64,000 nucleotides of DNA, taken from NCBI GenBank assembly GCA_963782525.1, contig CAWAKC010000003.1, positions 192,001-256,000 on the forward strand. The letters run 5' to 3'. Under the pieces are notes generated by a model, which did not search any database, was not told the DNA's origin, and saw only the letters and a program-made list of their open reading frames with translations. Positions 9,313-20,491 of the stretch are shown here, in pieces (position 1 is the stretch's first letter; the number at the start of each line of letters is the position of its first letter). The stretch comes from Candidatus Bathyarchaeota archaeon (GTDB taxonomy: Archaea > Thermoproteota > Bathyarchaeia > Bathyarchaeales > Bathycorpusculaceae). Made by a program: the position numbers and the translations under genes.

Positions 9313-9325
9313 TGGTGCCGAGGGC
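9313..9325 (-). repeat. 13-bp direct repeat of the tRNA-Phe 3' end (putative att)
   Basis: TGGTGCCGAGGGC is identical to 20415-20427. Confidence 0.7.
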
Positions 9326-9407
9326 TAGCTTGACACCGTCGTTTAAACCGTCGTTACAACATTATCTAAAAAAACAGGGGCAGGTCGTACCGGACTTAAC
9401 CCCGAAA

Positions 9408-11030
9408 CAGACTGTGTGAAAAGTCCTATAGTCCACTTACCGTTAAGCTTAAAGCTAGCTTCAGAACAACTGAAAAGCCATGAGCGAACATGTAAACGGA
9501 ACTCACAGAGACCAAACAGTGCTGTTTCCAGACACCATCGACAAATATGTTGACAAAGAAAATCCCGTCAGGTTCATTGACGCATTCGTTGAAAGCCTCA
9601 ACTTGGAAAAGTTGGGGTTCAAACACTCAAGCCTGGCCGACACTGGAAGACCATCTTACAATCCTTCAGACCTTCTCAAGCTCTATGTTTATGGCTACCT
9701 CAACCAGGTAAGATCCAGCAGGAAACTGGAGAAAGAATGCTACCGCAACGTCGAAGTCATGTGGCTCATGAAAAAGCTGTCTCCAGACTTCAAAACCATC
9801 GCAGACTTCAGAAAAAACAACGTAGACTGCATCAAAGGAGTATTCAAAGAATTCGTTTACCTCTGCAGGAGCTTGGACCTTTACGGTGCGCAACTTGTAG
9901 CGATTGATGGAACCAAATTTAGGGCTGTCAACTCAAAAAGCAACAACCTCAACGAGAAAACCGTTGCGTTGAGGCTTAAGCAGACAGAGGAAAAGATAGC
10001 ACAATACCTCAACGAATTAGATTCTAATGATGCCAACGATTCAGAGGACGATGATAATGCACCTGCTGATGAGCTTAGGGAAAAAATAGGCCAGCTTGAA
10101 GAGAAGAGGCAGCAATATGAGCAAATTCGAGAGCAGATGAAGGCTACAGGCCAAAGGGAGGTTTCACTTGTGGATCCAGACAGCCGTTTAATGCGAGTTG
10201 ATAGTCAACGGCTTGAAGTTGGCTACAATATTCAAACTTCCGTTGATGCAAAACAGCACCTCATTGTCGATTATGACGTGATAAATATCTCCACTGATCA
10301 CCATCAGCTGGTTAAGGACGCTTTAGCAGCGAAGGAAACCTTAGGTGTGGATAGGCTAGCTGTTTTGAGTGACAAGGGTTTCTACGTCGAGAAAGATGTT
10401 GCAGGTTGTGAGGATAATAATATACCCTTTTCATGCCTATACCTGGGGCTTTGAATCCATACAAGAGCGTTGGCATTCCTGAGCCTGAATTTTACTCTGA
10501 CAAATTTGTTTATGATGCCGCTAAGGACGTGTATGTTTGTCCTGTGGGAAATGAGATGCCTTTTTGGAAGCGTAGTAACCGCGGCAAAGGTTTTGATGGT
10601 AGGCTGTATAGGTCGAGGTGTTGTGATTCTTGTTTGGTGAGAGGTAGGTGTACTAGGAATAAGCGTGGACGGTATATGTTCAGGGGTGAATATGATGGGG
10701 CGGTTGATCGTTTAAGGGAGCGGTTGAAGGGTTCGGAGGGCAAAAAGATGCTTCGTTTGAGGCGGTTGTTGGCGGAGCATCCGTTTGGGACGATGAAGCG
10801 GGCTTTTAATCAGGGTTATGTGCTTTTGAAGGGTCTTAGGAAAGTGAGAGGAGAGGTTGGTTTCACTATGTTGGCTTACAATATGAGAAGGGCTATCAAT
10901 ATTCTTGGAGTTGGAATGCTAATAGGTTTGATTAAAGCGTAAGGAAAAAGAAAGTAAGTGCAGGTAATCGAAGACAAGAGATTAGGCGCCAGATATCTCA
11001 GGCTTTAGCGGTGAGTTTTAACACAGTCTG
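9408..11030 (+). mobile_element. IS1182-family insertion sequence, copy 1 (1623 bp)
   Basis: TIRs CAGACTGTGTGAAAAGTC / CAGACTGTGTTAAAACTC; 4-bp TSD GAAA at 9404-9407 and 11031-11034. Confidence 0.93.
9480..10942 (+). CDS. IS1182-family DDE transposase, split by a frameshift at ~10425
   Basis: GRPSYNP, SSRKLE, PDFKTIADFR, AIDGTK, DPDSRLM, GYNIQ, SDKGF; second ORF has the Cys cluster and EHPFGTMK. Confidence 0.92.
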
Positions 11031-11748
11031 GAAAGGGTATGAGTCCCTTCACCTAAATTCTTTGAATTAGGCTATTTTGACGAGTTGAACTATGATATGA
11101 AGCCTCGCTCTCCCTAATCAATCAGAGAACAAGTCCGCCGAGTCGCAGACCTGAACAGGTTCAAGTCCAAGTGATGCCTCTTCAGAAACTAACCTTCTTT
11201 TCCTAAGTAGGGGCATTTCGAGTCAGCATCTAATTTTTTCTTAAAGTAATCAAAGGGCCAAGCCTAAGCGGTGTGGTTAGAAAGAGTGTTTGATGAAAAC
11301 TCCTTTGTATAGGCCGAGCTGGCGTTTTCTATGTATTCGTTGATTTCTTGTAGTAGGCTGGGTGTGTTTTGTTGGAGTGGATTTGGGCTTGTTGTTGGTC
11401 TTGGAAGTGCGTGGTTAGGGTTTGGCGTGCGTTATCGCTGGAGTGGTGTAACCTTATTACTCATATGTCCTTTTCCAAACATTAATCGAACACTGATTTC
11501 AACAGTAAGAACTCCCCTTGTATATGCAGTTGCTACATCCAGGATTAGTAAAATATCTACTCTTACTCAAAAAGAATCCATCAAACAACTAATATACGCC
11601 CAAGTTACATTTCAGGTTTTGCAAGCAAAACACTTGATTGACAGAAAATAGGTATGGTACTGCAAAGCGATTGATTGATGGGTTACTCAAAGTGCTCTTA
11701 GAAATAAAATGGATTGAAGCACACTAAAATTTGGCGTTTCCTTTTGTG

Positions 11749-12159
11749 CTATTCTAATTTTAACACTACTGCAACTTTTTTCTTGGTTAAATCTTCAACT
11801 ATTTGAATCCATGCAAATGGAATATCCACTTTCTCTTCTTCTGTGAGTTTCCTCACTTTGAAAGCGCTTTGGACGAAAAAAGAACGTTTGCATGATTCAC
11901 AATTCAAATATGGAAAAATTCCATCTAACGGCCTAGTGACTTCTTGTTTAGCACCGCAATAAGGACATTGTTGAATCTTAGGTTTCTCGAGGCTGGTTGT
12001 AACGTTTGATTTAACATCGATACTACTTTCTAACTCGTCCCAGGAAGAATACATTCGATGCAAAGGGGAATTTCCGCTAGACCATAATTCTTTGAAAATG
12101 CTAAGGGCTTCTTTTCGATCATTTTTTGTGGATACTGGATAATCATTTTGATCGACCAT
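11749..12159 (-). CDS. Hypothetical zinc-ribbon protein
   Basis: CPYCG...CESC; GGTGA RBS. Confidence 0.7.
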   Translation of the reverse strand: MVDQNDYPVSTKNDRKEALSIFKELWSSGNSPLHRMYSSWDELESSIDVKSNVTTSLEKPKIQQCPYCGAKQEVTRPLDGIFPYLNCESCKRSFFVQSAFKVRKLTEEEKVDIPFAWIQIVEDLTKKKVAVVLKLE

Positions 12160-18404: not shown

Positions 18405-19583
18405 CTATAGAGCCTTAAATGATTCAAACCATCTGTCGTATTGCGCCAGCATGTCAATGGATACACTGGGCTTTCTTTCTTCGAGTATCTGCCTAAAATC
18501 CTCCATCGTCAACGGCCGTGGCTTGGCCCTTCTGTCGCTTGCCTTACCTGAATCAAAGAATTCGCCGATGAGTTTCAGCTGTGCCGACTGGTTGAGATCT
18601 CTTATGTCGCTTCCTGAGAATCCCTCTGAGAGTCTCGCGAGCTCCCGCAGCTTAACATCTGGAGCAAGTTGAAGACTGGCAGTGTAGAGCTTGAACATCA
18701 TCAATCGTGTATGGCGCTCAGGCAGTGAGACCAGAATTCTTTTCTGAAATCTTCTTATGAAAGCCCAGTCCAAATCCCAAGGCTTGTTAGTCGCTCCAAT
18801 CACGTACACGTGAAGGTTCTTGCCTTTGTCTAAGATACCATCCATCTCTTTCAAAAACTGGTTGCGAACACGGATTTCGCCGCCTACCTCATTTGCGTGT
18901 TTTCCCATCAAAGAATCAAGCTCATCGACGAAGATTATTGCAGGCTTTCCTTCCAACGATGTTTTCCTTACTTGACCAAACAGGCGTGCGACATTCTGTT
19001 CACCTTCACCCATCCATTTTGACATTATCGAAGCCGCGTCAATTGAGACGAAAGTAGCATCTATTTCCGTAGCGACGGCTGCTGCAAGCAATGTTTTCCC
19101 GCAACCTGGCGGTCCGAAGAACAATATTCCCCGTGGCCATCCTAATGGAAACAGGTCGGGTCTCTGAACAGGATAGAGTATTGCCTCCTTCACCGCCTTC
19201 TTTGCGGGGGCCAGTCCAACGACTTCCTCCCATTTCACGTTGAGCTTCTCTGTACCTATCAGTTCTTCGTAACTGGATTTGCCGCCTTCACTCTTTTTGG
19301 TTTCACCCTCACGCCCGCTATATCTAACTTCTGCGTGAGGTTGTTCGCGCGGCACACCTAGGGCGCCTTGAATCGCCTTTATGCGTTCTTGGTAGGCGAT
19401 CGCTTTTTGCACGTAGACTTTGTTCAAGTCGTATTCAGGATAGAGTTTAACAAGTTGCAGTAGGCTTTCTATGGATTTCTGGTACATGATTATTGCCATG
19501 CCCCTTGAGCCTTGCTTGTCCAAGCGCACTGCTTCCGACGCGTAGTTGGTTGCATTCTTCTCAAGCTCTTGGGAAGCACTCAT
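18405..19583 (-). CDS. cdvC: Vps4/CdvC AAA ATPase (MIT domain plus single AAA domain)
   Basis: MIT helix ASEAVRLDKQG...[34 protein letters not shown]. Confidence 0.93.
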   Translation of the reverse strand: MSASQELEKNATNYASEAVRLDKQGSRGMAIIMYQKSIESLLQLVKLYPEYDLNKVYVQKAIAYQERIKAIQGALGVPREQPHAEVRYSGREGETKKSEGGKSSYEELIGTEKLNVKWEEVVGLAPAKKAVKEAILYPVQRPDLFPLGWPRGILFFGPPGCGKTLLAAAVATEIDATFVSIDAASIMSKWMGEGEQNVARLFGQVRKTSLEGKPAIIFVDELDSLMGKHANEVGGEIRVRNQFLKEMDGILDKGKNLHVYVIGATNKPWDLDWAFIRRFQKRILVSLPERHTRLMMFKLYTASLQLAPDVKLRELARLSEGFSGSDIRDLNQSAQLKLIGEFFDSGKASDRRAKPRPLTMEDFRQILEERKPSVSIDMLAQYDRWFESFKAL

Positions 19584-19702
19584 AACCTCTTTTCTCCAGT
19601 CTGCAATTCAACTTTTATTTTATCTTTCGACCCTAAACTTTCAAGGCGCACACGCGCTAAGCTGAAAAGTCTACGTTTACTCACAAAGAACTCGCCAATT
19701 AT
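19580..19702 (-). pseudogene. Possible remnant of the cdvB/ESCRT-III C-terminal winged helix
   Basis: Startless frame ...RVRLESLGSKDKIKVELQTGEKRL* whose stop overlaps the cdvC ATG (ATGA). Confidence 0.4.
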
Positions 19703-20414
19703 CTAATAAGCACAATCAACATTTCAGTTTTTCCTAAGCAACAAAGAATCATCACAAGCATTCCAAGTAATCCAGATGGTTTTTTTCTGATAAGGGCAAG
19801 TTACCTAGACGACTCGTTATGCTAATCATTGAACAGTTGGTGAATGGAGGAAAATATTGCGCTTGTAGCACATTACAACAAGAAAAAAGATTTGCTTACT
19901 CTGATTATTGTGGCAGTTCTTGGTTTGGCAAAGGTTTCTTCTTTGTCAGGTCCTGTTGTGCCTTAGTTAAGTCTTTGAAGCCGTAGGTTCCAACTGGCGA
20001 CCAACCTGCTTCCGGCATAACCCCTGGCACTAACATGATTGTGTTTGTTTGCGATTGCTGACTTAACACGCAGAGCAAAAAACCAAAAACGTACCAAGAG
20101 GCAGGAGTATGAGTTGAAGTATATTGCCTACGCTTTTTGAAATCGCAAGGCAACTCGTAGATTCTATTCCCATTTGCCGTTTGTTTGCTTAAACTGCATC
20201 TGAACCACACGGCAATCCTCACACCAAATCCGCTACATCTTCAAAACAGATTCGCCCTGGTACGCCGCGCTTTTTTTGCCCTGGTGGCAAGTACAAGGGA
20301 GTTGAAAACTGTGTGTTTGATCCTTTAATTTGAACGGTTAAAAGCGAGCGCTAAGCGCACATAATATCGTAATTTATGCCCAATATTGCAAAATAACCTC
20401 AAATTAAGGTTATT

Positions 20415-20491
20415 TGGTGCCGAGGGCAGGGTTTGAACATGCGACGACTCGGTCTTCAGCCGAGCGCTCTCCCAGGCTGAGCTACCTCGGC
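20415..20491 (-). tRNA. tRNA-Phe(GAA), CCA encoded
   Basis: GCCGAGG acceptor, CTCGG-CTGAAGA-CCGAG anticodon arm; one T-stem mismatch (GCATG/CCTGC). Confidence 0.92.

Follow-up and report, generated by a model that had tools for sequence, protein, structure and literature searches.

Extra copies of core-type genes on one of two tandem islands at tRNA-Phe in a Bathyarchaeota genome

How do genes for TBP, an RNA polymerase subunit, the unfoldase Cdc48 and the Vps4-type ATPase CdvC come to lie together behind a tRNA-Phe gene? Core transcription, cell-division and proteostasis genes are usually treated as vertically inherited single-copy markers. The question is raised by a stretch of 64,000 nucleotides (here called the window) from a Candidatus Bathyarchaeota archaeon, GenBank assembly GCA_963782525.1. 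Its source genome, G000, has a size of 2.87 Mb in 12 contigs, with an estimated completeness of 95.8% and an estimated contamination of 2.7%, and the window is G000:C3:192001-256000 on the 463-kb contig C3. Other G-numbers denote related genomes and L-numbers denote loci, and a prime sign (cdvC', TBP', Cdc48', RpoP', RpoB', Alba') marks a module-type copy as opposed to a canonical copy. The best explanation overall, which we consider probable, is an island without integrase that is bounded by attachment (att) sites, belongs to a tandem array at tRNA-Phe and carries a recently transferred module of extra core-type genes.

The boundaries of the island are defined by the following features, in window coordinates unless a contig is named.

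20415-20491, minus strand: tRNA-Phe(GAA), found by ARAGORN, Rfam tRNA 56 bits; its last 13 nt (20415-20427) are the attL core
20354-20414, no strand: tRNA-proximal island arm (P'-type), common to the G010 and G012 islands and to two inner G046 junctions
9326-20414, no strand: island A, 11,089 nt; the att copy at 9313 separates islands A and B
9313-9403, no strand: attR, consisting of the core (9313-9325) and a conserved island-side arm (9326 to about 9403)
C3:190259-201312 (window 1-9312 and about 1741 nt beyond the left edge), no strand: island B, the second tandem island, 11,054 nt, with a third att copy (C3:190243-190288) as its outer end

The 3'-terminal 13 nt of the tRNA-Phe gene, including CCA, read TGGTGCCGAGGGC on the plus strand at 20415-20427 and recur as an exact direct repeat at 9313-9325. 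A first-pass annotation of this DNA had proposed that this repeat bounds the segment; the match is indeed exact at both ends, and it now has a third copy and a conserved arm. A direct repeat downstream of a tRNA 3' end fits the geometry expected from tRNA 3'-end integration. By chance, 0.07 matches to the 13-mer are expected in the window when one mismatch is allowed, and two or more matches were found in none of 100 shuffles. In the whole G000 genome the 13-mer has three copies, all on one strand and all no more than 22 kb downstream of tRNA-Phe, the third being C3:190246-190258, which is 1742 nt past the left edge of the window. Both downstream cores are preceded on the island side by a common sequence of which the first 30 nt are identical, and in G039, G002, G046 and G010 the arm with its core likewise lies downstream of tRNA-Phe, three times in G046 and at a contig end in G010. 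An alignment of eight copies from five genomes reveals a conserved arm of about 75 nt and a similarity that ends exactly at the last base of the core. The core flank of G046 and G054 is only 68-73% identical to that of G000. At the tRNA-proximal end, window 20354-20414 is 96-98% identical to G010 and to two inner G046 junctions and 84% identical to G012 (blastn, 58-142 nt).

A relative that lacks the insertion is found in G040, where similarity of 87.7% over 9684 nt runs from the third att copy outward directly into the tRNA-Phe gene of G040. The same flank lies near tRNA-Phe in G001, G014, G057, G045, G052 and G013, and in G000 the inserted DNA between tRNA-Phe and the ancestral flank measures 22,156 nt. 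The third att copy, the shared arms and the empty site of G040 together lead to the conclusion that the insertion comprises about 22 kb, arranged as two islands in tandem, neither with an integrase. Island A is therefore a genuine genomic island and one of two modules of about 11 kb in tandem, each ending in arm and 13-nt core. The interpretation of the segment as an integrated element or island is borne out by the empty site and the conserved att arm, although what had been taken for a single island of about 11 kb, real as the segment is, turns out to be one of two. The cargo of island B consists of an ATP-dependent DNA ligase, a histidine phosphatase, a CBS protein, CorA and an NHL-repeat surface protein. 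Of 60 relatives in the genus, none has a close copy of this ligase (window 1-1743, minus strand), which is 40-44% identical to the single canonical ligase of each relative and 43% identical to the one of G000 itself at C9:141547.

The cargo at this tRNA gene differs among relatives. Island genes of the window adjoin tRNA-Phe in none of the 20 loci of relatives that were fetched, and between the same arms G010 and G046 hold other cargo (alcohol dehydrogenases, DUF4386, a hydrolase, a methyltransferase and similar genes). In further genomes of the genus, partial tRNA-Phe 3' ends of 21-55 nt are found downstream of the tRNA gene or apart from it. Tyrosine integrases directly adjoin tRNA-Phe in G039 and G047, and in G039 a 3.8-kb segment from tRNA-Phe to the same arm includes a 238-aa integrase, a single case in which the integrase is apparently shortened. 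Homologous integrases exist elsewhere in G000, for example at C6:36140-37279. The integrases of the sibling elements, the varying cargo and the partial tRNA ends indicate that tRNA-Phe is an integration hot spot in the genus. Island A probably entered by site-specific recombination at the 13-nt core; the catalysis would have been provided in trans by a tyrosine recombinase, of the kind that sibling elements at the same tRNA carry, and the array was probably built by repeated use of the att site.

The four named genes of island A are the following.

18405-19583, minus strand: cdvC', a Vps4-type AAA+ ATPase; MIT 30.2 (cut-off 30), AAA 123.8, Vps4_C 23.5 (cut-off 21.3); intact
17306-17866, minus strand: TBP', the third TBP of G000; PF00352 190 bits, both repeats; intact
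14092-16260, minus strand: Cdc48'; CDC48_N, CDC48_2, two AAA domains and AAA_lid_3; TIGR01243 1049.6 against a cut-off of 802.65; intact
13834-14037, plus strand: RpoP', an Rpo12-like zinc ribbon; N-terminal extension of about 20 aa, four-Cys ribbon

All four are additional copies, and the canonical ones are found elsewhere in G000. Matches to family models confirm that tbp, cdc48 and cdvC are intact. Both ATPases match their models over the full length, AAA domains included, and the divergence from the genome's own canonical copies is spread over all domains, with the greatest divergence in the CdvC linker (32% identity). In the curated equivalog models, TBP' stays below the NCBIfam cut-off (234.6 vs 270) and cdvC' below that of NF041006 (493.6 vs 650). 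Aligned to the two other TBPs of the genome, to which it is 73% and 64% identical, TBP' keeps both Phe-Pro-Gly motifs and both Phe residues before the Ser/Gly-Gly-Lys/Ser motif, with one Lys-to-Ser change in repeat 2. We take these Phe pairs to be the DNA-kinking residues known from yeast and archaeal structures.

Counts across the genus are based on 60 relatives for TBP, Cdc48 and RpoP and on 18 same-genus genomes for cdvC, with 120 genomes across the order for Cdc48'. TBP matches are found in 57 of the relatives, typically one each of two types that are 69-76% and 60-64% identical to TBP'. The canonical Cdc48 of G000 lies at C1:280493 (73% identical to Cdc48'), and a canonical-type Cdc48 exists in 57 of the 60 relatives at 69-75%. 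The canonical cdvC lies at C4:114164, is 76% identical to cdvC' and stands in a cdvB-cdvA-cdvB-cdvC cluster, preceded by genes for a Snf7-like protein, CdvA and another Snf7-like protein. This order is kept in 76 of 80 Bathyarchaeia loci, the exceptions being two loci at contig edges and two loci of the window type, and all 18 same-genus genomes have a single cdvC at 71-77%. The three genes that precede cdvC in the canonical locus are all missing near cdvC' and near its orthologues in L018 and L019, in agreement with the earlier remark that cdvC lacks its cdvA/cdvB context here.

The assignment of the fourth gene needs more care. RpoP' reaches 17.3 against a cut-off of 24 in PF03604 and 27.3 against 63 in NF001605; the canonical RpoP of G000 also stays under the Pfam cut-off, with 19.8. 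RpoP' is 60% identical to the single-copy RpoP of the genus over residues 22-66 and 54-62% over residues of about 20-67. Since the curated cut-offs are not reached, we identify RpoP' by its zinc ribbon and its homology to single-copy RpoP, so that the proposed rpo12 stands as a homologue with a four-Cys ribbon but not as a member of the family by curated thresholds. The canonical RpoP lies at C7:290581, adjoining Trm5/TYW2 and Trm112 genes, and one such copy is found in 59 of the 60 relatives. The first-pass annotation had named the case in which these would be the only copies and the arrangement syntenic in relatives, making the 13-bp match incidental. A search for canonical copies, which it had proposed, found them for all four genes, and the arrangement is non-syntenic in 20 of 20 tRNA-Phe loci, so this case does not apply.

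If these are extra copies, where did they come from? The order (cdvC')-acidic open reading frame (ORF)-TBP'-zf50-o44-o46b-o46a-Cdc48', with RpoP' and zf52 alongside, recurs in G064, G045, G046 and G054, and a shortened or rearranged module is found in G031, G032, G077 and G037. None of these other copies adjoins tRNA-Phe. Cdc48' is present in nine of the 60 relatives at 91-95%, two of them as partial hits, and in two of the 120 genomes across the order; TBP' is present in seven relatives (83-88%), RpoP' in eight (75-93%) and cdvC' in none of the 18 same-genus genomes searched. This modifies the view of an accretion anchored at tRNA-Phe: the island in G000 is bounded by att sites, but the cluster of cdvC', TBP' and Cdc48' travels and is found at sites other than tRNA-Phe in other genomes.

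The trees (quick IQ-TREE runs with SH-aLRT, a likelihood-ratio branch support; hits with less than 90% query coverage or with stops excluded, identical rows merged) place the module copies apart from the canonical ones. In the Cdc48 tree (39 rows) the window-type clade has a support of 100 and a stem of 0.32, lies outside the canonical clade of the genus and holds a second copy of G033; the canonical Cdc48 of some other families is nearer to Cdc48' (77-80%) than the genus's own (72-75%). In the TBP tree (46 rows) the TBP' clade has a support of 95 and is separate from a canonical clade spanning several genera. In the cdvC tree (109 rows, LG+G4) the copies of the window, G031, G032 and G046 form a clade with a support of 99, which is nested (97) among the canonical cdvB-linked copies of a G033-like lineage and not among the genus's own. 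This nesting makes cdvC' a xenolog from the division locus of another lineage.

At the nucleotide level the module copies match the window at 88-95% across stretches of up to 4.9 kb. Synonymous divergence (dS) between module copies and the window is 0.09-0.15 for Cdc48', 0.28-0.33 for TBP' and 0.13-0.19 for cdvC', whereas it is 1.47-2.5 for canonical Cdc48 (G000 vs G064, G046 and G054) and 1.26-1.84 for the canonical TBP-A (G000 vs G064, G046, G054 and G045). The closest relatives, G010, G012 and G040, lack the cargo of island A, and their canonical genes differ from those of G000 by a dS of at least 0.4. The low dS of the module and its absence in the closest relatives indicate that it entered G000 recently and spread recently between species. 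Judged from these trees and distances, the module forms clades of its own, occupies varying places in the chromosomes of the minority of related species that have it and is far younger than the genomes that carry it.

The ratio of non-synonymous to synonymous divergence (dN/dS) of the island copies is 0.19-0.30 for Cdc48', 0.23-0.31 for TBP', 0.20-0.29 for cdvC' and 0.18-0.38 for RpoP', compared with 0.012-0.04 for canonical copies. The module is thus under purifying but roughly tenfold relaxed selection. Trees and dN/dS against the core orthologs had been suggested as a check at the outset, and they return separate clades and values of 0.19-0.31 vs 0.012-0.04. Contigs from RNA libraries (metatranscriptomes of two studies) match the module at 90-99%, for example at 14900-15711 in Cdc48', 16427-17297 in the small-ORF stretch, 17299-17490 in TBP' and 18412-19359 in cdvC', which agrees with the module being transcribed, or else its copies in close relatives.

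The remaining contents of island A complete this picture. From the tRNA outward, about 830 nt without assignment are followed by cdvC', acidic and Cys-rich micro-ORFs, TBP', zf50, o44, o46b, o46a and Cdc48', all on the minus strand, and then by RpoP' and zf52 (plus strand, convergent), zf110, o117, zf136 and an insertion sequence (IS) that abuts the att arm. A scan of 9000-24200 with Rfam gave two tRNAs only.

19584-20353, no strand: stretch upstream of cdvC' without an assigned feature; accompanies cdvC' in G031 (to 20075) and G046 (to 19854), blastn 91-92%
18206-18274, minus strand: 22-aa acidic micro-ORF; 15 of 22 residues Asp or Glu, two Trp; start and stop kept in four other loci (DNA alignment)
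18151-18201, minus strand: 16-aa Cys-rich hydrophobic micro-ORF, conserved with the region, coding status uncertain
16999-17151, minus strand: zf50, 50 aa, invariant C-x-C...H-x3-C pattern (7-copy alignment), dN/dS 0.06-0.24
16689-16960, minus strand: o44 and o46b, tiny ORFs of doubtful coding status; 75-93% conserved, dN/dS 0.5-1.7 in most pairs
16486-16626, minus strand: o46a, 46-aa basic Cys-containing protein just upstream of Cdc48'; 85-93% in five loci, dN/dS 0.16-0.40
13648-13806, plus strand: zf52, small zinc-ribbon protein paired with RpoP'; 85-91% in other loci
13052-13384, plus strand: zf110; 88% in G061
12380-12733, minus strand: o117; 61% in G040
11749-12159, minus strand: zf136; 96% in G077
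9383-11074, plus strand: IS1182/IS5-like insertion sequence with a DUF772 and DDE_Tnp_1_6 transposase, at the left end of the island

Of the tiny zinc-finger, basic and acidic ORFs that had caught attention in the sequence, zf50, o46a, zf52, zf136, zf110 and the 22-aa acidic ORF recur in other genomes, while o44 and o46b remain doubtful; identities for zf50, o46a, zf52, RpoP', zf136 and zf110 are 75-96%. A TATA-like box is found about 45 nt upstream of the 22-aa acidic micro-ORF. Profile searches gave no family match for zf50 and no family above cut-off for zf136, o117 and zf110. The neighbours of zf50 in a protein atlas are unnamed small viral proteins at 0.90, a score also reached by chance and thus a lead only, and the predicted complex of TBP' with zf50 (score 0.03, mark 0.32) says nothing either way.

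The IS has terminal inverted arms of 34 nt (9392-9425 and 11013-11046, 74% complementary). Its transposase is frameshifted into pieces of 324 aa (9480-10454) and 169 aa (10433-10942), in both copies found in the window; G046 has an intact 487-aa homologue at the same position relative to the att arm. The second copy, at about 38941-40631, is 99.2% identical over 1692 nt and has the identical frameshift, and next to it, at about 37749-38266, part of a related transposase is found with 72% identity. A 47%-identical transposase has six further copies elsewhere in G000.

Throughout the genus, tRNA-Val and tRNA-Phe form a conserved divergent pair whose members lie about 275 to 3400 nt apart. In G000 the stretch between the two (window 20805-23528) encodes a 907-aa PQQ-like repeat surface protein, whose homologues in relatives are 29-36% identical and are found at varying places around the tRNA pair. 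A heliorhodopsin gene (window 25977-26714, minus strand, Pfam 268 bits) adjoins an ABC-2 transporter, and in G012 the heliorhodopsin block lies directly downstream of tRNA-Phe, so the tRNA pair is inverted relative to the block between G012 and G000. In G003, G036, G043 and G048 the tRNA-Phe match falls into two parts (positions 1-31 and 32-77) separated by about 30 nt, which suggests an intron-bearing tRNA-Phe in some members of the genus. Four PF00589 matches lie within about 30 kb at G000:C3:121500-152961, about 40-70 kb from the window start, and the third of the genome's TBP genes, at C3:133363 and of a type present in nearly all genomes of the genus, lies among them.

Several observations weigh against an att-bounded island with a recently transferred module. 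No match to the integrase family PF00589 was found in C3:190-213 kb, the integrases of relatives used as queries found no remnant in the islands, and island A contains no integrase, excisionase, replication gene or capsid gene. The earlier statement that no integrase or capsid is visible is thus correct for the island, but it had overlooked the frameshifted IS transposase at 9480-10942. A core of only 13 nt is short for an att site. Assembled contigs of public sequencing runs gave no excised or circular form and no informative joint at the att sites; no run held more than 0.24 of the sampled words of the stretch, and uncovered parts of the island carry no meaning. In 12 loci of other genomes there are no tRNA-derived repeats around the module, so that the att-bounded island and the module may move by different routes. 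The raised dN/dS could reflect decay instead of new function. The RNA-library contigs are assembled and strandless, DNA carry-over is possible, and the matches at 90-95% may be relatives' copies. Finally, every genome compared is a metagenome assembly.

In other genomes the module is accompanied by more genes of the same kind. An extra full RpoB gene directly follows Cdc48' in G046 (L204 15239-18610) and G031 (L018 15814-19185), and it is broken in G065 (L203). This RpoB' is 92-93% identical to the canonical RpoB of the genus, which is also kept in G046 and G065; in G046 both copies are intact, and G000 has the canonical RpoB only. An Alba gene is found with the module in seven of 13 loci, two thermosome subunit genes in G046 and G054, and genes for an SSB-like OB-fold protein and a TRAM-domain protein also join it. 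Among 70 metagenome contigs with Cdc48', TBP' is linked in 10, Alba' in 12, TRAM in seven, RpoP' in five, SSB-like in five, RpoB' in three, thermosome genes in two and cdvC' in one. Because many of the contigs span just a few kb, these are minimum counts. Two module-carrying contigs are longer than 1 Mb, integrases, whole or in fragments, occur close to the module in L299 (beside tRNA-His), L204, L277 and L313, and RpoP' is broken by a TGA in G077. We also considered whether the canonical Cdc48 and RpoB genes of G031 (L148, L259, L260) are pseudogenes replaced by intact module copies, but their one and two frame shifts are more likely long-read sequencing errors; if real, they would mean that core genes were replaced by module copies.

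What might such a set of genes do? For the stress, dormancy or host-takeover programme proposed in the first-pass annotation, the evidence extends to purifying selection, a conserved gene order and matching contigs in RNA libraries. Our best guess, put forward with low confidence, is an accessory transcription and proteostasis set that would supplement the host machinery and in which an alternative TBP and RNA polymerase subunit P would give promoter or polymerase variants, while the two unfoldases would remodel or turn over such complexes. A rather unlikely extension would be a "shadow core" of the Bathyarchaeia, that is, a mosaic mobile pool (RpoB, RpoP, TBP, Alba, SSB-like, thermosome, Cdc48, CdvC) serving as an alternative or replacement set, for instance one that is insensitive to viral inhibitors or used by an unseen mobile element to reprogramme transcription. 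In this scheme the 22-aa acidic peptide could be a DNA-mimic regulator of TBP.

Other explanations of the set have to be weighed against these. The island could be what is left of an extrachromosomal element such as a virus or plasmid, with a takeover kit that redirects RNA polymerase (TBP', RpoP', RpoB') and uses CdvC' and Cdc48' for remodelling or egress, its replication, structural and integrase genes having been lost. The long stem and shallow crown of the Cdc48' clade in at least two lineages and many metagenomes, the recent transfer between species, the position inside an att-bounded island and the integrases or fragments near the module in the four loci named above all agree with this, as do the TFIIB homologues on thaumarchaeal integrative-conjugative elements described in the main text of PMC6563490. 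We nevertheless regard it as unlikely, since none of about 85 loci examined links a hallmark mobile-element gene to the module, several carrier contigs exceed 1 Mb and are therefore chromosomal, and the thermosome, Alba and SSB companions look cellular. Single-protein queries with Cdc48' and TBP' also found no relative in a viral contig collection, in a search that detects close relatives only.

A second alternative denies any joint function: the genes would be a dump of redundant xenologs from recombination among related genomes, drifting to loss. The relaxed selection (dN/dS 0.2-0.3) could be read in this way, and so could the mosaic architecture with sub-blocks shuffled among genomes, the broken copies of RpoB' in G065 and RpoP' in G077, the IS in the island and the many paralogs of these families that G000 has anyway. 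Yet all large genes, and also zf50, o46a and RpoP', have a dN/dS well under 1, the reading frames of the window copies are all intact, and the gene order is repeated in at least five genomes at unrelated sites. The linkage of Cdc48' to TBP' and Alba' in the 70 metagenome loci, many of them short, and the matching contigs in RNA libraries likewise speak for a joint function, and we consider a functionless dump quite unlikely.

It is questionable whether the set could be an antiviral back-up or decoy, in which xenologous copies of virus-targeted machinery (RNA polymerase, TBP, ESCRT ATPase, unfoldase and chromatin proteins) would be kept in a variable island as insensitive versions. The gene families agree with this idea, and a hypervariable tRNA-linked hot spot, a patchy distribution with fast turnover and a dN/dS ten times the canonical one would be expected from it. 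We find it very unlikely, because there are no known defence genes, the other cargo of the same hot spot is ordinary metabolism and we found no direct precedent in the literature. The PADLOC matches to the IetA and TRIP13 models were rejected as a defence assignment, as they reflect only generic AAA+ similarity. An artefact, in the form of an incidental 13-nt match or a chimeric join in a metagenome-assembled genome with the contamination given above and junctions known from assembly and not from reads, is largely refuted already and extremely improbable, given the three core copies with their shared arm, the same att structure in four independently assembled relatives, the empty site of G040, a GC content of the island (42.3%) equal to that of the genome (42.9%), the 463-kb contig and a DNA run with contigs that match island pieces at 0-1 mismatches.

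The preferred reading, an integrase-less island in a tandem tRNA-Phe array with a transferred module, can be compared with systems that are already described. In haloarchaea, TBP and TFB paralogs are reported to have expanded, and some of these genes are plasmid-borne. Like these paralogs, TBP' is an extra general transcription factor beside an essential copy and shows signs of horizontal movement; unlike them, it travels together with Cdc48, small proteins and an RNA polymerase subunit as one fixed cluster, without TFB and in a host from the Bathyarchaeia.

Arrays of integrated elements or islands at tRNA genes, formed by tyrosine-recombinase elements that re-use one att site, are described for thaumarchaeal elements (PMC6563490) and for Prochlorococcus tycheposons (bioRxiv 10.1101/2020.12.28.424599). 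The likeness to G000 includes partial tRNA 3' ends as direct repeats, tandem stacking with older modules pushed outward, some degenerate members without integrase, cargo that varies between close relatives and siblings with an integrase beside the tRNA. In contrast to those arrays, neither module of G000 has an integrase, the core is only 13 nt but joined to a conserved arm of about 75 nt, and the cargo consists of extra information-processing and proteostasis genes, not of metabolic, defence or transport genes; the tycheposons, moreover, are bacterial and G000 is archaeal. The thaumarchaeal integrative-conjugative elements (PMC6563490) carry TFIIB homologues and so provide a general initiation factor on an integrated mobile element of a related archaeal group, but they have conjugation, partition and integrase genes and TFB instead of TBP. 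"TATA" and "Cdc48" are each absent from the main text of that paper.

For a functional link between TBP and Cdc48 there is a precedent in Haloferax volcanii, where the turnover of TBP2 depends on Cdc48 and the proteasome (PMC4895103), a case of a specific Cdc48 paralog acting on a specific TBP paralog in an archaeon; for Cdc48' and TBP' it would be a model at most. The link in H. volcanii is biochemical, not genomic, and the island has no ubiquitin-like modifier, E1 or JAMM gene. The architecture of cdvC' (MIT-AAA-Vps4_C) resembles that of the canonical TACK Cdv locus, but, compared with the locus as outlined in bioRxiv 10.1101/2024.02.06.579148, cdvC' is an orphan without CdvA or ESCRT-III neighbours, nested in the CdvC of another lineage and present in few genomes. 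An apparent mention of a TBP gene near Vps4 in an ESCRT paper refers instead to a fold in adaptin-like proteins. In the literature on Bathyarchaeia TBP and Cdc48, Bathyarchaeota genomic islands, mobile CdvC paralogs and mobile TBP paralogs we found no such module described, although supplementary gene lists may hold similar cargo.

The extra, horizontally moving copies on the island indicate that genes held to be fixed core machinery circulate between species as cargo. Here intact additional copies of core-type genes behave as accessory genes: they are found at a tRNA-linked hot spot, keep a shared order and have spread more recently than the species diverged. This bears on marker-gene phylogenies and on contamination estimates for Bathyarchaeia genomes. 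It is also relevant to the diversification of general transcription factors in archaea, and it provides a concrete, testable instance of TBP and RNA polymerase subunit genes that are mobile in an archaeon other than a haloarchaeon. Were the set indeed a replacement or takeover kit, it would represent a new kind of cargo for archaeal mobile islands.

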